Positions 21,220-29,898 of a stretch of 43,291 bases of DNA are shown here, one piece after another. The DNA is taken from IMG/VR virus record IMGVR_UViG_3300028571_000001, one strand, 5' to 3'. A program made the translations under genes and the position numbers. Source of the stretch: a virus. Under the pieces are notes generated by a model. That model saw only the letters and a program-made list of their open reading frames with translations, had not been told where the DNA came from and did no database searches. Numbering within the stretch: the stretch's first letter is position 1; every line of letters starts with the position of its first letter.

Positions 21220-22689
21220 TTAAAAGCCTATAATACCTGCGAGTATCCCCCCACTAACATTTACAATCTGAACCCTACTTGTCGTTTCACAATCACAAAT
21301 CCTTTCCAAAGTAACTGAATGATTTTCGTTTGGCAAGTTAACCGTTACATTTTGCCCCACAACCGAACCAAAACTTCCCGACCATCTATACGTGCAAGGT
21401 TCAAAACAAGCCCGAGCAACTGCAAACAAATTAGCCGAACCGCAACTACTCACATAGCTAAATGGTTGCATTTGTGGACGCGTATATGGCATTGAAATAT
21501 TTTGCAGACCAAACATAGTGTTTCCGTTTGCAATTGCAGCGTTGAAAACAAAATTACAACCTACTCCTGGGGTTAATGGATTGTTGATTCGTGCAATGTC
21601 TGTATTGTTTCCGCGTGAAATGTAAATGCGTCCGTCGTCTGCATACCAACCTGTTCCAAGACTCGCAACAGTCTGAGGCGTTGAACCAACTTGTGTTATT
21701 GTTCCTGTACAAACATTAATTTGCCTTACTGCTCCATTGTTTGAAAAGGTGTAAAGTAAGTTCTCAGCAAACTTTGAATCGTAAACACCATTTATAGTAT
21801 AGTTATTTTGAAATGTTACTACTCCCGTTGACTTGTTAAAGCCGTAAGTTTCAATTTGATTTACTCCATAGTAACAAACTGCGAATCTATTGCCGTCTAA
21901 ATGAAAACCAAGTGTACCTTGTGATCCGTTTGCGCCTCCATTTAGTCCTGCACTACTTATGATTGCTGGGCCTAATCCGCCTGCTGTTAATGGGTAAGCG
22001 TAGAAATTAGTTGATTGAAAACGCTTAGTTACAATCCATGTCGTGTCGCCGCCGCAAGTAGTTACAGCACTTACCGATTCGCGCATATTAAAAGCCGCAT
22101 TTAAAGCAACGTTTTTTACTGCTGTAACGGCCCCTAAACCTCCATTAAGTGTCATGTCAATTACGCTGTATGCCAAAGGTGCTAATCCCATTTGACCAAG
22201 TGTAAATAAATACAAAATATTTGGCGTGTTTGGTTGAGCAACTATTAAAGCTGTTTGCGTTGTGGAATTGCTGCCCGTTAAAAAGTTTCCATTTGGCATT
22301 GCGTTATTGTTCCTATCGTATGCCGTTAGACCATCGCTGTAAGCAAGTATTTGACCTGCGGCATTTGATAGGCAACTTGCACCCTCAATGGTATTAATTG
22401 CGCCAAATTGAAATGCTGCGGGAGGGTTGAGCCTTACGTTACGCCCAAATGTCCAGTTTTGGTTTTGGGCGGTGCAGAATAAGGGCAATAAAAACAGCAC
22501 TAGAAATAATTTAGATTGAAGCCATTTAACAGTTCTTAAATACCTTCTTAATTGCTTAAATCCTTTGCTACTTACTTTAAATTCAGCGTTACTATTAAAA
22601 GCTGGATAATAAAATGAAGCATAACCAAAATTATAAACTTCAACTTTAAAACCATCAACTTCTATTTCTCTTATGTTAATGTTTGCCAT
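21220..22689 (-). CDS. Secreted or membrane-anchored repeat protein (possible beta-propeller), hypothetical
   Basis: 489 aa. A signal-peptide-like segment LFLVLFLLPLFCTAQ sits about 60 aa after the only in-frame ATG. The body is Gly/Asn/Thr-rich and repetitive. Preceded by conserved element R2. Confidence 0.5.
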   Translation of the reverse strand: MANINIREIEVDGFKVEVYNFGYASFYYPAFNSNAEFKVSSKGFKQLRRYLRTVKWLQSKLFLVLFLLPLFCTAQNQNWTFGRNVRLNPPAAFQFGAINTIEGASCLSNAAGQILAYSDGLTAYDRNNNAMPNGNFLTGSNSTTQTALIVAQPNTPNILYLFTLGQMGLAPLAYSVIDMTLNGGLGAVTAVKNVALNAAFNMRESVSAVTTCGGDTTWIVTKRFQSTNFYAYPLTAGGLGPAIISSAGLNGGANGSQGTLGFHLDGNRFAVCYYGVNQIETYGFNKSTGVVTFQNNYTINGVYDSKFAENLLYTFSNNGAVRQINVCTGTITQVGSTPQTVASLGTGWYADDGRIYISRGNNTDIARINNPLTPGVGCNFVFNAAIANGNTMFGLQNISMPYTRPQMQPFSYVSSCGSANLFAVARACFEPCTYRWSGSFGSVVGQNVTVNLPNENHSVTLERICDCETTSRVQIVNVSGGILAGIIGF

Positions 22690-22820: not shown

Positions 22821-23849
22821 CTACTGAACTGCATCAAACAAACTTACCGACTTAACAGCACTCATAACTCGTTTTTTCGCATCTTTTATATTTAATGCCA
22901 TTTGTTTAAAATAGCTATCTTTTAGCTCAATTCCTATTGCCTTACGACCTAAACTAACAGGGCTGTAAACTTCGCTACCAACACCAGCAAAAGGGGTTAA
23001 AACAACTTCATTTGGATTTGAGTATAATTCAACAATCCTATCAATTACATCTAATTGCAAAGGGTGTACGTGTTTCTCATCATCATCTTCTTTGCTATCT
23101 TTAAAAGGCAGTACATTATCAATTCTAATATCATCCCATACACTCGAAGCATATCTTTGCCAAATGTAATGGCTCAATTTATTGTTAGGGTTTTCACTAT
23201 CGTAAAAGCTATTATTTAAGTGCTCCCATAATTGTTCCTCATTTAGTTTTGTGTTGTTGGCATTATTCCAAGCAGTTAAAATATTGCTTACTATTGGAGT
23301 TGCACCAAAGTAATTTTTCAATCCTTGCGAATGTGTTACAGGTACTAAATTATCACCTTCTTTGGTAAATATCAATACATAATCAGGCATAGCAGTAAAG
23401 CATTTTGTGCTATCTTCTACAATAAATTTGTGCATTAAACTTTGTACCATTGTTCTCATTCTAACCTTTAAAGGCTCTTTCCAAATAGTAATTCTATTGC
23501 GATAATGAAATCCATACTTTTGATGTATTTTTATTATTTCAGCAGGGAAATCCCATAGGAAACATCTATTATCGTGTACATCGGTACAATGCACAGCGTT
23601 AATTCTACCAGCTTTTGTAACTCTTGCCATTTGATGAACTAAAAACTCGTATTGCTCCAAAAATTGTTCTTTACTTTCGCAATTACTAAAGTCATTTTCT
23701 GAACTTGAATAATTATACAATCCTGCAAATGGTGGAGAGTACACAACTAAATCAACACTTTCATCTTCTAATGTTGGTAATACTAACATACAATCTGAAT
23801 TGTATATGGCGTAATTTTCTGTAATTACTTGGTCTTTTACTTTGCTCAT
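22821..23849 (-). CDS. DNA methyltransferase, N6-adenine/N4-cytosine type (beta class)
   Basis: Catalytic motif DLVVYSPPF comes before the SAM motif VVLTPFAGVGSE and LGRKAIGIEL. Confidence 0.8.
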   Translation of the reverse strand: MSKVKDQVITENYAIYNSDCMLVLPTLEDESVDLVVYSPPFAGLYNYSSSENDFSNCESKEQFLEQYEFLVHQMARVTKAGRINAVHCTDVHDNRCFLWDFPAEIIKIHQKYGFHYRNRITIWKEPLKVRMRTMVQSLMHKFIVEDSTKCFTAMPDYVLIFTKEGDNLVPVTHSQGLKNYFGATPIVSNILTAWNNANNTKLNEEQLWEHLNNSFYDSENPNNKLSHYIWQRYASSVWDDIRIDNVLPFKDSKEDDDEKHVHPLQLDVIDRIVELYSNPNEVVLTPFAGVGSEVYSPVSLGRKAIGIELKDSYFKQMALNIKDAKKRVMSAVKSVSLFDAVQ

Positions 23850-23860
23850 TTTGTTTAATT

Positions 23861-25273
23861 TTAAAATTTTGGTTTAATTATGTCTTTTGTAAATTCTTTC
23901 TTTTGTATTTCGTAAATGCTGTTTACATTTTCAGATAGTTTTGTAAACATATCATTTGCCTTTTCTTTTTTGATTTGTAGGCTTTCCATTATTCGAGTTT
24001 GTCCATCACTTAAAACCAAATCAACATAAACATCATTTTTTTGTCCGAACCTCCAAAACCTTCTTATCGCTTGGTAATATTGCTCATAGGAATAAGTTGG
24101 AAAATATGTTGTATGATTACAATGTTGCCAGTTCAATCCAAATGCAGTTATTGAAGTTTTAGTAATTAGCTTTTTAATTTCACCTTTTGAAAATGATAAC
24201 AATATTTCTTCTTTTTTATCAATATCCATATTTCCTTTTACTTCAACACAATTATCTAATTGATTAATCAATTTTGCTTCATCATTCAAATTAACCCAGT
24301 ACACACTTGTTTCGTGTGCATTAGCCAACGATACAGCCTTTTCACATCTTTGTTCTAAAGTGTTTCTTGTTTCGGCTTTTATTTCAAAGAAATTAACAGC
24401 AGGAAAATTAAATAATGATGTTTGTCCATTAATAGCCAGAGGGCTTTCATTTCTTACTTGATGTTGGTTTTCAATAAGTTTTGGCAATTTGTATTTTTCA
24501 TCACTAAAACCTAAATCACTTGGCTTTCGTATTGAAATTGCCCATTGTGAAACCCATTGCCAAAAATCCTTTTCAGCGTGTGGTTTAATATAATATTCAC
24601 TACCTGCATTCCTTACCTCAATACTCCCTTTGTTGTTCTTAAAAAACCGTGTAAGCATATCTGTATATCCTAAATATCCAAGTGCTTCGCTACTTGTACC
24701 CAATTCAATATAATCATTGGGGCTTGGGGTTGCAGTTGAGCAAAAACGATAAGGAACTTTTTTAATAAATGAAGTAATTTTATTTTTAATTGCTCCATCA
24801 AAGTTTTTTAAAATACTGCTTTCATCCAGTATCACTCCAATAAAATCTTTTTCATTAAAGTATTGCAACCTTTCGTAATTACATACTACTATTTTTTTAG
24901 TATGAACTCCATTTTTTGAGTATTCAATATCATCAATACCTAATTTTTCAGCTTCAAAAATAAATTGAAATGCAACCGCCAAAGGTGTTAATATCAATAC
25001 TTTTTTATTTGTATGTTGTATAATGTTTTTTGCAATTGATAACTGAATTAAAGTTTTACCTAATCCAGTATCAGCAAAAACGGCAATACGACCTTTCATA
25101 ATTGACTTTTCAATAATTGCTTTTTGGAAGTCAAAAGCTATTTCAGGAATGTAATTTGGTTTAAATCCAAAGTCGCCAATTGAGTGCCTTTTCTTATCCA
25201 AAAAATCCAAATAACTACCCGTACTGCACACAACATCGGTTTGGCAAAATGGGGGCTTTAGTGCTTCTGTCAT
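23861..25273 (-). CDS. SF2 helicase, SNF2/DEAD-like
   Basis: Motif I FADTGLGKT, motif II ILDESS, motif III STATPSPN, motif VI QAIRRFWRFGQ. Confidence 0.75.
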   Translation of the reverse strand: MTEALKPPFCQTDVVCSTGSYLDFLDKKRHSIGDFGFKPNYIPEIAFDFQKAIIEKSIMKGRIAVFADTGLGKTLIQLSIAKNIIQHTNKKVLILTPLAVAFQFIFEAEKLGIDDIEYSKNGVHTKKIVVCNYERLQYFNEKDFIGVILDESSILKNFDGAIKNKITSFIKKVPYRFCSTATPSPNDYIELGTSSEALGYLGYTDMLTRFFKNNKGSIEVRNAGSEYYIKPHAEKDFWQWVSQWAISIRKPSDLGFSDEKYKLPKLIENQHQVRNESPLAINGQTSLFNFPAVNFFEIKAETRNTLEQRCEKAVSLANAHETSVYWVNLNDEAKLINQLDNCVEVKGNMDIDKKEEILLSFSKGEIKKLITKTSITAFGLNWQHCNHTTYFPTYSYEQYYQAIRRFWRFGQKNDVYVDLVLSDGQTRIMESLQIKKEKANDMFTKLSENVNSIYEIQKKEFTKDIIKPKF

Positions 25274-25353: not shown

Positions 25354-26445
25354 TTAGCGGAAATGCCAATCGACAGCCTCCAACGATTTGAAAATTTCGT
25401 AAGCGACTTGTGGAACGATAGCGTTTCCAAATGCTTTTATGCTTTCTGTTCTCCACTTTGAAAAGGTAATTCCGTCCAATTCGGGGGGAAGCCCATCATC
25501 TCCGCCACAAATCGGGGATTGAGTTGGGAAGTTTTGGAAGTTGTTAAATCCATCTCTGCTATCTGATCCGTTAAATTTCCCTTCCCTCGTTTGTCCGATG
25601 TATTCCCTCTGCTTGCTTGTGCCGTTGGTGTGCATAGTAGCCTCGTTAAAGTCATTGAGTGCATTGAACCCTCTTTTACTTGTGTGCTTTTCATTGTTGC
25701 CGTTGCACTGGTCGCATCCATTGCAGTCGGTGTTGGTATCATTCCCTTGTAAATCGCAAAGTCCACTATTGAAAATTGCCTGGCGTTCCCTCCTTTGTCC
25801 CTTCGTGTGTAAAGTGGTAAGTTCGCTTCCTTCATCATTTGTGCAACTTCCGGCCTTCCTCTTTGAATTGTGTCGGGAGTAGGCCACAAACCAAACTCTA
25901 TCCCGTCTGTGGGGGGCGTTGATGGCACAAGCTGGAAGTACATACGGCCATACTTCGTACCCCTCAGCTTCCAAGTCAGCTTGCACTTCGTTGAATACCA
26001 TTCCCCCGTTCCAATTAATAAGTCCGAAAACATTTTCACCCACAACGTAGGGCGGTTGAATTTCTCTAATTGCTCTAAGCATTTCTGGCCATAAATGGCG
26101 TTCATCTTCTTTCCCTTTTCGCTTTCCTGCAAGTGAGTAAGGTTGGCAGGGAAATCCTCCTGTGAGTATATCAATCTTGTTTGCATATTTTTTAAAATCT
26201 GTTTTTGTTATATCTCCAAATCCTTCTGCATTTGGAAAGTGATGTTTTAAAATTCTTTGCCCAAATTCATTCCATTCGCACCAAGCTAATGTTTTCCATC
26301 CCATCCATCTTGCAGCTAATGAAAAGCCTCCAATACCCTCAAATAAGCCAAGATGCGTAAAGGCACTTCCGCTAACATCGGTTTGGCAAAAGCTGGGCTT
26401 CTGTGGTTCAATCAAGTTCTGTAATTCTATTGAGCTTCTGTTCAT
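25354..26445 (-). CDS. DNA (cytosine-5) methyltransferase (frame A)
   Basis: Motifs I FEGIGGF, IV GGFPCQPYS, VI VVGENV, VIII PHRRDRVWFVA and X FGNAIVPQV. The middle 140 codons are polar and low-complexity, and a second long frame overlaps them (see findings). Confidence 0.7.
   Translation of the reverse strand: MNRSSIELQNLIEPQKPSFCQTDVSGSAFTHLGLFEGIGGFSLAARWMGWKTLAWCEWNEFGQRILKHHFPNAEGFGDITKTDFKKYANKIDILTGGFPCQPYSLAGKRKGKEDERHLWPEMLRAIREIQPPYVVGENVFGLINWNGGMVFNEVQADLEAEGYEVWPYVLPACAINAPHRRDRVWFVAYSRHNSKRKAGSCTNDEGSELTTLHTKGQRRERQAIFNSGLCDLQGNDTNTDCNGCDQCNGNNEKHTSKRGFNALNDFNEATMHTNGTSKQREYIGQTREGKFNGSDSRDGFNNFQNFPTQSPICGGDDGLPPELDGITFSKWRTESIKAFGNAIVPQVAYEIFKSLEAVDWHFR
25437..26186 (-). CDS. 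Nested +1-frame ORF (249 codons) inside the C5-MTase gene, with PTP repeats and an MGFPxxWT motif
   Basis: Stop-free for 750 nt on the same strand. Encodes LWPTPDT, IPTPTAMD, CTPTAQAS and LNPRFVAEMMGFPPNWTELP. Whether it is expressed is unknown. Confidence 0.35.
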   Translation of the reverse strand: MQTRLIYSQEDFPANLTHLQESEKGKKMNAIYGQKCLEQLEKFNRPTLWVKMFSDLLIGTGEWYSTKCKLTWKLRGTKYGRMYFQLVPSTPPTDGIEFGLWPTPDTIQRGRPEVAQMMKEANLPLYTRRDKGGNARQFSIVDFAIYKGMIPTPTAMDATSATATMKSTQVKEGSMHSMTLTRLLCTPTAQASRGNTSDKRGKGNLTDQIAEMDLTTSKTSQLNPRFVAEMMGFPPNWTELPFQSGEQKA

Positions 26446-27724: not shown

Positions 27725-27955
27725 TTATTTAAGGGTTAAAAAATTAATTGATTTCATTGGTTCAGTTGAGTAGTCTCCAAGAGAATTAAAAAAATATTCT
27801 TTAGTTCCTGCGGGTGGAATTGGTGGCGGATTTTTAGGAATATTTTTAGTCCACTTGTTTGGAGTAAAATCAATTCCATGATTACTGTGCATCATTAACG
27901 GAAGTAAACCCATCATTAACATTGCATTTGATTTTTTTAGTCCCATTTTTTTCAA
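27725..27955 (-). CDS. Small Pro-rich exported protein (76 aa), hypothetical
   Basis: N-terminus MKKMGLKKSNAMLMMGLLPLMM and PKNPPPIPPAG. 4-nt overlap with the lysin gene. Confidence 0.4.
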   Translation of the reverse strand: MKKMGLKKSNAMLMMGLLPLMMHSNHGIDFTPNKWTKNIPKNPPPIPPAGTKEYFFNSLGDYSTEPMKSINFLTLK

Positions 27956-28653
27956 TTTTCAATTAACCTTATAACCTTACTTACCTGCCACAATTCTCTT
28001 ACTCGTATGAATACGCCCCATCCATCCCGTCCTCCCGAGGGATTTGTATTCCCCTCGATTGTGATAAGGTTGCCCTTTTCGGTAACTCCAAGTACAACGA
28101 AGATATGTGCGTCACGGCCAAGATTAGAAAAGTAAATAGTACACTGGTCTCCCCTTCTGACCTCTGACGGCAAAATGGTACGCTTTGCTTGGACTTTATC
28201 CCATACGACCTTTTCTTTCCAAACACCACGGCTCCAATTAGGAACAAAACCGCTAATAGGGTAAGGAATACAACTATTACGATTAGCAATACCCGTGAAG
28301 CCAGCGCACCAAGCAGCCTCAAAATAAATACCAACACTTGCAAGCATATTCTTAATATCTTCGCCCCAATTGCTACCTTTGGGCTGTTCGGTTGTTCCGA
28401 GATAGAGCAAGCATTGTTGGATAAATTCTTCGGTAAGTACATCGTTTGTTCTAAATTCGGGGTAAGTGTTTGCTGTTGTGTATTTGATTTGTAGCGGCTT
28501 TAACTTTTCCTTGCTTTGACTTAACTTAGAATCAGACTGTGCGCTAAGAATATTGCTGCTAAGATTCCATAAAAGTAAGTGCGCCAAGTAGAAGTAAATT
28601 CGGGAATATTGAAGTAAGAACCTTTTGGTACGGGTGTTGTGTAATTTATCCAT
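27952..28653 (-). CDS. Peptidoglycan hydrolase (endolysin), CHAP / NlpC-P60-like
   Basis: Candidate Cys nucleophile AAWCAGFTG, His in RDAHIFVVLG, and ITIEGNTN. The N-terminus is signal-like (..NLSSNILSAQ). The start is uncertain because 28653 overlaps the upstream gene by 133 nt. Confidence 0.55.
   Translation of the reverse strand: MDKLHNTRTKRFLLQYSRIYFYLAHLLLWNLSSNILSAQSDSKLSQSKEKLKPLQIKYTTANTYPEFRTNDVLTEEFIQQCLLYLGTTEQPKGSNWGEDIKNMLASVGIYFEAAWCAGFTGIANRNSCIPYPISGFVPNWSRGVWKEKVVWDKVQAKRTILPSEVRRGDQCTIYFSNLGRDAHIFVVLGVTEKGNLITIEGNTNPSGGRDGWGVFIRVRELWQVSKVIRLIEN
27999..28442 (-). CDS. Nested +1-frame ORF inside the lysin gene with predicted TM helices (holin-like candidate)
   Basis: 147 stop-free codons. 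Contains ILRICLQVLVFILRLLGALASRVLLIVIVVFLTLLAVLFLIGAVVFG followed by the basic stretch KKRSYGIKSK. This could be an off-frame artefact. Confidence 0.2.
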   Translation of the reverse strand: MYLPKNLSNNACSISEQPNSPKVAIGAKILRICLQVLVFILRLLGALASRVLLIVIVVFLTLLAVLFLIGAVVFGKKRSYGIKSKQSVPFCRQRSEGETSVLFTFLILAVTHISSLYLELPKRATLSQSRGIQIPREDGMDGAYSYE

Positions 28654-29121: not shown

Positions 29122-29898
29122 TTAGTATCTAAGATTAACCTTTTCACGTCTGCGAAAATTAAAAATATCCTCTAATAAAAACTTGTATTGCGTTACATTA
29201 GCACAATGAGTTAAGGCGGAGGGATTGTTTGCCAATTTGCTAATCATATCAGCGTGAACATAATTTTCATTTTTAAATAATGTTATTAATGTTCTTACAA
29301 AAGTTGAACGGTTGTAACCATCGTAATAAGGTTTAAACATCAACACTTTTTCAGCAGTTTCATAAGCCTTTGACAAATCAGGAATATTTAATTCTCCATT
29401 TTGAAAGCCCATCATTCTCATAGTTACTTTATCAACTACCAATTGTTTGTTTTCGCCATTAACATTATCGGTCAAAATCATTTCAGCAATTGCAACTCCA
29501 AAGTCAGGAAAATCTAACATAAATTGTCGCATTTGAAGATAAGGCTCAAGACCTAAATCGCAATATGCTTTTAAATAATCTTCTTTTTTCCAATTTGCTG
29601 AGTTTGTGTTCAAAATCTGAACTTCTTCTAATCCGTAACCTTCAACTACTAAATAGTTAATTGGAAAATTTAATTCTTTAGCAGAAAGAAAACGATGTTG
29701 TCCGTCTATAATTTGCATTTTTTCATTTACAAGAATAGGACTAAATAAATACCTTTCTTTAAATGAACTAATCAGCCTTTTAATGTGTAATTCATTCGGC
29801 TTTCTGTTTCCAATCAAAGTTTTAAACTTCGCATAATCACTACTTGTTTGCACTTGGTTACTATACTTCGCCATTGGTGCATTTTTTAATTTATTCAT
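29122..29898 (-). CDS. ParB N-terminal (ParB/Srx-like) domain protein
   Basis: PILVNEKMQIIDGQHRFLSAKELNFPINYLVV matches the ParB-like nuclease/NTPase domain core. Confidence 0.65.
   Translation of the reverse strand: MNKLKNAPMAKYSNQVQTSSDYAKFKTLIGNRKPNELHIKRLISSFKERYLFSPILVNEKMQIIDGQHRFLSAKELNFPINYLVVEGYGLEEVQILNTNSANWKKEDYLKAYCDLGLEPYLQMRQFMLDFPDFGVAIAEMILTDNVNGENKQLVVDKVTMRMMGFQNGELNIPDLSKAYETAEKVLMFKPYYDGYNRSTFVRTLITLFKNENYVHADMISKLANNPSALTHCANVTQYKFLLEDIFNFRRREKVNLRY

Follow-up and report, generated by a model that had tools for sequence, protein, structure and literature searches.

Nested reading frames in a viral cytosine methylase gene and their probable reading as a two-subunit enzyme

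Though the motifs of a DNA (cytosine-5) methyltransferase (C5 methylase) would normally be sought in one reading frame, those of a gene in IMG/VR virus record IMGVR_UViG_3300028571_000001 (43,291 nucleotides (nt), the whole of which we call the window) are divided between two, which raises the question of whether the locus encodes one protein or two. An earlier inspection of the letters alone (the sequence-only reading) had placed two long open reading frames (ORFs) on the minus strand, frame A at 26445..25354 and frame B at 26186..25437, the latter +1 relative to A, and the ORF translations agree in both coordinates and phase. They also contain the peptides by which the motifs had been recognised, namely FEGIGGF, GGFPCQPYS, VVGENV, PHRRDRVWFVA and FGNAIVPQV in frame A, and LWPTPDT, IPTPTAMD, CTPTAQAS and LNPRFVAEMMGFPPNWTELP in frame B. 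This is a real and strongly conserved dual-coding gene, and we consider it quite probable that it encodes a heterodimeric C5 methylase of the M.EcoHK31I type, made of two polypeptides, alpha from frame A and beta from frame B. The parts of the locus are as follows.

26445..25354, minus strand: alpha gene (frame A), 363 amino acids (aa), with the C5-methylase core (motifs I-VIII) followed by a polar linker and by motif X
26186..25437, minus strand: beta gene (frame B), 249 aa, +1 relative to alpha and wholly within it
26323..26343, minus strand: motif I, FEGIGGF, alpha residues 35-41, in the alpha-only 5′ portion upstream of the beta start
26184..26186, minus strand: beta start codon ATG, 11 codons ahead of the frame-B P of PCQ
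25890..26186, minus strand: dual-coding region 1, alpha motifs IV-VIII over beta residues 1-99 (N-terminal region, which includes CLEQLEK)
26134-26160, 26029-26046 and 25882-25914, minus strand: alpha motifs IV, VI and VIII, respectively
25530..25889, minus strand: beta variable region, residues 100-219, with the PTP modules; presumed target-recognition part
25869-25886, 25716-25739 and 25611-25634, minus strand: beta PTP modules WPTPDT, IPTPTAMD and CTPTAQAS, respectively
about 25531-25866, minus strand: alpha polar passenger linker, the frame-A reading of the beta variable region
25461..25529, minus strand: beta motif IX, SQLNPRFVAEMMGFPPNWTELPF, residues 220-242, overlapping alpha's FPTQSPICGGDDGLPPELDGITF
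25405..25431, minus strand: motif X, FGNAIVPQV, alpha residues 339-347, downstream of the beta stop in alpha-only coding sequence

Frame A is readily assigned. It matches the Pfam model PF00145 with 160.8 bits (cut-off 22; 7e-47; residues 31-355), TIGR00675 (dcm) with 135.8 bits (cut-off 100.65) and phrog_363, and the catalytic PCQ and ENV are both read in its translation; by these thresholds and motifs alpha is a member of the C-5 cytosine DNA methyltransferase family. By both sequence and structure the best match to its catalytic core is M.HhaI (31-33% identity, about 170 residues), which aligns to alpha solely over residues 30-190, i.e. motifs I-VIII. Frame B matches phrog_1008 (“DNA methyltransferase”, 7e-27, residues 4-243) and no Pfam or NCBIfam model, and a search of its profile against PDB sequences gave no match. 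We had considered the E. coli prophage CP-933R methylase (PDB ID: 3g7u) as a solved member and rejected it as a distant single-chain relative (39 bits). The B family is large: it has 1,872 database homologues that are stand-alone and without Pfam domains, and its profile matches 17,506 of 1.84 billion cluster representatives (E <= 1e-3). Of the 150 matches listed, almost all have a length of 220-450 aa, and many share residue 1 at one profile position. PF00145, sought as the sign of a fused single-frame ancestor, is absent from all nine of the longest B-like proteins, and we therefore regard B as a stand-alone family. One database match to B, P0112 (a called protein of 304 aa), opens with frame-A sequence (motif I, MAVTHGSLFSGIGGF...) before passing into frame B; it represents either a frameshifted variant or an error of sequencing or gene calling.

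The C-terminal segment of frame B, LNPRFVAEMMGFPPNWT, reads as motif IX, a resemblance that had been pointed out from the letters and that is borne out here: B residues 100-242 joined to the A tail match PF00145 positions 252-322 with 29.1 bits, whereas the C-terminal 171 aa of frame A on their own have no PF00145 match. A colinear A-B-A chimera scores 170.3 bits against the same model, compared to 160.8 for A alone. The segment is also the most conserved of beta (frame-B identity 0.83-0.84), with invariant columns at L222, F226, E229-P234 and W237. We take the true motif IX to be the one supplied by B, with alpha lacking it, judging by these profile matches. The order I-IV-VI-VIII, variable region-IX, X runs A, B, A, just as had been proposed, and the frame under purifying selection switches likewise.

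To see how far this layout extends we scanned viral contigs with B, which gave 556 relatives, and considered 84 sources (80 loci, the three phages BN12, BS-TP4 and Lc-Nu, and the window). An A ORF with PCQ, ENV and GN[AS] encloses a +1 ORF of at least 184 codons in 83 of them. Since these had been chosen by B, a second sample of 79 loci was drawn with the 87 alpha residues upstream of the B start as query, and here about 73 have a +1 ORF of 165-316 codons bearing the MGFP motif, while the +2 frame reaches just about 30-60 codons. The nested pair stands in the same register in Paenibacillus phage BN12 (whose record annotates both as coding sequences), Bacteroides phage BS-TP4 and Lactobacillus phage Lc-Nu, in each of which the alpha motif VIII strand overlaps the first beta PTP motif. 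It is also found in Lacticaseibacillus phage R9.1, in plasmid records of Paenibacillus polymyxa and Bacillus thuringiensis, in E. coli phage K1ind1 and in mycobacteriophage Che9d (gp80). A generic B query matched 180 phage records, 45 of them from Escherichia phages and 12 from Mycobacterium phages, and the subtype seen in the window occurs in bacterial genomes chiefly of Bacteroidota. The pair is thus conserved across phyla, the hosts of the phages that carry it being Bacteroidota, Firmicutes, Proteobacteria and Actinobacteria. The sequence-only reading had named, as the outcome that would tell against it, a frame B that lacks homologues and is interrupted by stops in close relatives; what we find is a large family and no stops in 77 distinct loci.

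Several single loci may be recorded alongside these counts. In five of the A-selected contigs (L104, L105, L109, L118 and L134) the +1 ORFs span 101-182 codons and the MGFP pattern is unmatched; these loci, which lack an intact nested beta, could reflect loss, a divergent motif IX or a beta located elsewhere. In another (L095) the +1 (251 codons) and +2 (250 codons) frames are both open in alpha, the sole long +2 frame among the 79. Two contigs (L028 and L032) each carry two separate nested alpha/beta pairs about 2 kilobases apart, one with A of 459 codons and B of 406, the other with A of 325 and B of 230. Others, such as L005 and L008, have an alpha nearly identical to that of the window.

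Whether both frames are kept open by selection can be asked by shuffling synonymous codons while the protein and codon usage of one frame are held fixed. Given the A protein, 4.1 stops are expected in B from the beta start to motif VIII, and given the B protein, 6.2 are expected in A across the variable region. None is observed in the 77 distinct loci, with a median probability of being open of at most 0.005 per locus, though as the loci are phylogenetically related these probabilities are not simply multiplied. The window itself gives a similar picture: frame B runs open from stop to stop for 256 codons. Across the 38 open frames of at least 150 codons in the window, the median for the longest open stretch off-frame on the same strand is 40 codons, and these 256 are the maximum. 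This, with the probability of about 0.005 per locus from codon permutation, confirms the earlier view that the overlap is not due to chance. The accompanying remark that almost no other same-strand off-frame ORF exceeds 80 codons is nearly right, the one exception having 166 codons (27999-28499).

The ratio of non-synonymous to synonymous substitution rates (dN/dS; Nei-Gojobori, 539 pairs) differs between the frames in opposite directions along the gene. It is 0.21 in A and 0.90 in B over motifs IV-VIII, 1.47 in A and 0.30 in B over the variable middle, and 0.49 in A and 0.26 in B over motif IX; since synonymous sites of one frame are non-synonymous in the other, these values serve solely as a comparison between frames. 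Codon-position variability follows the same course. Upstream of B it is A-type and single-frame (0.25, 0.20 and 0.52 at positions 1, 2 and 3), and over motifs IV-VIII it stays A-type in a damped form (0.42 at position 3, compared to 0.52 upstream). It then becomes B-type over the variable region (0.62 at position 3) and, with low values at all positions, over motif IX (0.25 at position 3), before returning to single-frame A-type at motif X (0.51 at position 3). The alignment of homologous loci that had been proposed as a check on open frames and codon-position constraint thus shows both frames open and the frame under purifying selection switching from A to B and back to A along the gene.

Within this pattern the two dominated segments differ. 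Over motifs IV-VIII frame-B identity is 0.52, compared to 0.33 in permuted sequences and 0.39-0.40 in control regions outside the overlap, so that the beta N-terminal segment is kept open and modestly conserved where A dominates. The alpha middle has an identity of 0.317 (0.258 when permuted), which equals background. As had been described, it is polar and low in complexity, to judge from both translation and composition: the stretch includes NSKRKAGSCTNDEGSELTTLHTK, its hydrophobic fraction is 0.22 compared to 0.41 in the core, and across loci the linker ranges from 38 to 212 residues. The number of PTPxAxD modules in beta differs between homologues, which is as would be expected of a target-recognition region, the role we presume for it.

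A frame-B ATG lies upstream of PCQ in all 75 loci considered, clustering at -21/-22 codons in 45 and at -11 in 27 (the window being of the -11 type), and in none is there a frame-B stop less than 18 codons upstream of PCQ. Where hosts use Shine-Dalgarno sequences, some members have good ones inside the alpha coding sequence, as found in P. polymyxa (AAAGGAGG, 9 nt ahead of a TTG), phage BN12 (GGGAGGTG, 10 nt ahead of the ATG) and phage K1ind1 (GGAG, 6 nt ahead of the ATG), and the three are built from differing alpha amino acids. Independent translation of beta is what these signals suggest. Taken with the open frames and the complementary selection, they are indirect evidence that both chains are made, and would be required for methylation, in this family.

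An experimentally characterised precedent for the nested architecture exists, which the sequence-only reading had missed. M.EcoHK31I (Lee, Kam and Shaw 1995) comes from E. coli HK31 and has YGGCCR as its recognition sequence; its two-frame, two-protein arrangement was shown experimentally in 1995, according to the passages of PMC2836561 and PMC3404938 that deal with it. In those passages beta is nested entirely within alpha in another frame, alpha has motifs I-VIII and X, beta has motif IX, and both are required. Removing the beta start codons by changes silent in alpha abolished methylation, which beta from a second plasmid restored, and N-terminal deletions of beta weakened its association with alpha (PMC2836561, PMC3404938). 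The window agrees in the essentials: beta lies wholly inside alpha on the same strand in a different frame, alpha carries motifs I-VIII together with X, and motif IX reads in beta and not in alpha. Beta also has an N-terminal extension ahead of motif IX of the sort that governs association with alpha in M.EcoHK31I, and the deletion effect there therefore offers a possible function for the overprinted segment here. The small members of our family (A 247-313 aa, B 163-203 aa) are near the 309 aa for alpha and 176 aa for beta that the 1995 paper is said to give. Unlike M.EcoHK31I, which belongs to a restriction-modification system, the window gene lies among phage genes for replication and modification, and no endonuclease was recognised nearby.

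Other relatives differ in more than context. M.AquI of Agmenellum quadruplicatum is likewise a split C5 methylase whose subunits must assemble and whose small one carries motif IX, but as described in the part of PMC3404938 devoted to it the split is colinear, beta comprising the rest of the variable region, IX and X; the window instead keeps motif X in alpha and has its beta nested in a different frame. The single-chain enzymes M.HhaI and M.HaeIII (PF00145) share the catalytic core and, if the window is read A, B, A, the motif order, whereas here the small domain (variable region and IX) is in another frame and most likely in another polypeptide. Homologous pairs with the same +1 nesting are found as the Paenibacillus larvae phage gp62/gp63 (“DNA-cytosine methyltransferase”) and the E. 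coli Kagunavirus “Mte8-like protein” (K1ind1 ORF28), which are annotated in GenBank without explanation. The Paenibacillus phage papers merely list the nested genes, one paper naming Mte8 gives just the name, and no account of the breadth of the family was found in the literature searched. Most other phage records and pipelines call alpha alone. A blastn search of 5,426 E. coli genomes with the window gene and with its Lc-Nu counterpart gave no matches.

We propose that alpha would provide the S-adenosylmethionine-binding and catalytic core (motifs I-VIII) together with motif X, the two being bridged by a polar linker of ~110 residues, the sequence of which would be free of selection, yet stop-free so that motif X is reached. 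Beta would be translated from the internal ATG at 26186, 11 codons ahead of PCQ. By analogy with the beta of M.EcoHK31I, its N-terminal ~100 residues, overprinted on motifs IV-VIII, may dock it onto alpha; the variable region of PTPxAxD modules is the likely target-recognition part, with motif IX after it, and the two chains together would form an enzyme of the usual two-domain kind. A probable origin is a colinear single-frame methylase that underwent two compensating frameshifts, after which beta would have gained an upstream start and an N-terminal extension. As no restriction gene lies nearby, the enzyme is likely to be an orphan methylase acting on phage DNA.

The same A, B, A order could instead come from programmed recoding, with a +1 shift just after motif VIII and a -1 shift just after motif IX yielding one colinear methylase and leaving the middle of A and the N-terminus of B unused. 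This would account for the better fit of the chimera to PF00145, for its canonical-looking spacing from motif IX to GNA, for the switch in the selected frame, and for the weak amino-acid constraint on the beta N-terminal segment. However, it needs neither A to be open over the variable region (110-220 codons) nor B over motifs IV-VIII (~100 codons), and both off-frames are open in 77 of 77 distinct loci where about 6 and about 4 stops are expected, as they are in the A-selected sample. Inspection of the window sequence found no long homopolymer, no stop-codon-stimulated +1 site near the first junction and, near the second, no frame-B heptamer of the form X XXY YYZ. The first junction moreover varies among homologues (RVWFVAY, RVFILGH, RTFIVAH, RVFFIAH). 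One gene would require two shifts, and in the account of M.EcoHK31I in PMC2836561 the products work as separate proteins from separate plasmids. The locus thus has neither the conserved slippery site nor the off-frame accumulating stops that mark a programmed frameshift. The recoding suggested by the sequence-only reading is disfavoured by the stop-free state of the unused parts, and with A and B each open beyond the part that recoding would use, two separate polypeptides are much the likelier; we regard recoding as improbable.

Frame B might alternatively be untranslated, its openness being due to constraint at the nucleotide level or to strong conservation of frame A, with alpha alone as the enzyme. 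Some invariant B residues are indeed forced by A (for instance, B G33 by the invariant W-P of A, TGG CCN), B lacks a Pfam or NCBIfam model, and only A is called by most annotation pipelines. Yet the variable region is selected in B (0.30) and not in A (1.47), permutation with A fixed predicts a B identity of 0.32-0.33 compared to the 0.52 and 0.83 observed, and motif IX, part of the C5-methylase fold, is readable in B alone; alpha by itself would lack both a recognition domain and motif IX, the M.HhaI match being limited to residues 30-190. We give this reading even less credence than recoding. There remains the view that paired indels in homopolymers, whether errors or mutations, split an ordinary methylase, leaving a pseudogene or a misassembly. 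It can point to C6/G6 runs near both frame junctions (one G6 run noted earlier at 25482-25487 is indeed there, though we read it at 25483-25488) and to P0112, which passes from frame A into frame B. The C6 runs, however, code Pro-Pro in both frames, the same layout recurs in about 150 independent metagenomic contigs and in finished genomes of isolated phages, with four bacterial phyla represented, and purifying selection acts on both frames, in regions that complement each other. With both frames open and the layout intact in 83/84 B-selected and about 73/79 A-selected sources, from many independent assemblies and isolated phages, neither the paired indels nor the decaying methylase that had been entertained holds up, and the comparative data refute artefact and decay alike, for which we see practically no chance. 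Of the earlier suggestions it is the genuine overprinted gene that conserved open frames and complementary selection support.

A number of points nonetheless weigh against the two-subunit enzyme. Both products, at this locus and in its close relatives, are known from sequence alone, and kinship to M.EcoHK31I was judged by its described architecture and not by sequence comparison. About 6 of the 79 A-selected loci are without an intact B. The beta N-terminal segment is weakly constrained in its amino acids (apparent dN/dS 0.90), and the case for its translation rests on the avoided stops and on a modestly raised conservation. Strong Shine-Dalgarno sequences are seen in just some loci, those of Lc-Nu, R9.1 and the B. 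thuringiensis plasmid being weak, and Bacteroidota do not rely on such sequences. The AlphaFold model of B alone (46-sequence alignment) has a predicted local distance difference test (pLDDT) score of 54, too low for comparison of folds, and that of the colinear A-B-A chimera has a confident core but a B-derived block with pLDDT below 55, its mixed alignment having put N-terminal residues of B on catalytic columns of A. The fold of beta and its fit to alpha would thus gain no support from these models; Foldseek with the chimera model recovers just the M.HhaI-like core. A “single-chain heterodimer” design (A core, whole B and A tail) was dropped, as MAFFT drew A-type rows into the B block. Lastly, the literature on M.EcoHK31I puts the predicted target-recognition domain in alpha, whereas the variable region of the window is selected in beta; this mismatch concerns the location of a domain and not the architecture, and the M.EcoHK31I assignment is itself a prediction.

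On that last point we lean, with little more than even confidence, towards the specificity part residing in a separate, modular beta overprinted on the catalytic gene, the “variable region” of alpha being a read-through linker. If so, beta would be a swappable specificity subunit, loosely like HsdS of Type I systems, and the assignment of the M.EcoHK31I recognition domain to alpha would need revisiting. The pair would also rank, at about 180-400 codons, with the longest overlaps of same-strand genes that occur broadly in tailed phages, and the 17,506 beta cluster representatives, from at least four host phyla, would be a mostly unannotated family lacking a Pfam or NCBIfam model.

The surroundings of the gene fit a phage enzyme. 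Following the methylase on the minus strand are a DEAD/SNF2-like helicase (23861-25273) and then an N6/N4-type DNA methylase (22821-23849); further minus-strand neighbours are a DUF6923-repeat protein (21220-22689) and a weak GmrSD_N-like ORF (29122-29898). Among these neighbours no restriction endonuclease was recognised. The order of methylase then helicase is also found in the E. coli Kagunavirus phages K1ind1 and fKuEco01, where the helicase comes directly behind the nested pair, and the setting as a whole suggests an orphan phage methylase within a module for replication and modification. The 18-nt sequence TTTTGCCAAACCGATGTT is repeated exactly, at 25232-25249 and 26374-26391 (minus strand; 2 matches in the window compared to 0.18 expected), close to the 5′ end of each of two adjacent genes, the helicase-like ORF (25273..23861) and methylase alpha, and yields P-x-FCQTDV in both proteins; a close alpha homologue, P0259, has a similar N-terminal peptide, PPFCQADVSGS.

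Opposite the dual-coding region, the two plus-strand ORFs noted earlier (25541-25882, 113 aa; 25870-26094, 74 aa) are present in the ORF list, and are probably by-products of the raised guanine-plus-cytosine content (0.44 in the methylase gene compared to 0.36 in the window) and of stop avoidance in two sense frames. The 166-codon exception mentioned above (27999-28499, minus strand) is a second same-strand +1 nested frame, with an ATG ORF at 28442..27999 (147 aa), inside a 233-aa ORF (27952-28653, minus strand) that has weak PHROG endolysin matches. The nested frame encodes a long hydrophobic, transmembrane-like stretch, ILRICLQVLVFILRLLGALASRVLLIVIVVFLTLLAVLFLIGAVVFG, and could be a lysis gene, such as one for a holin or spanin, embedded in the larger ORF.

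What may be new here is the spread and under-annotation of the family, and that its variable, presumably specificity-determining, region belongs to beta. Since gene callers allow one gene per stretch of strand, they report either alpha, as an ordinary single-chain methylase, or beta, as a “hypothetical protein”, and a large family is thereby described as half an enzyme. If beta holds the recognition modules, predictions of specificity made from alpha only would be examining the wrong protein. The family also provides a large natural dataset of same-strand overlap with A-dominated, B-dominated and truly dual zones, useful for testing methods that detect overprinted genes. Naturally split C5 methylases are already used in tools for targeted methylation (PMC2836561), and a family with many beta variants would offer many further starting points for them.

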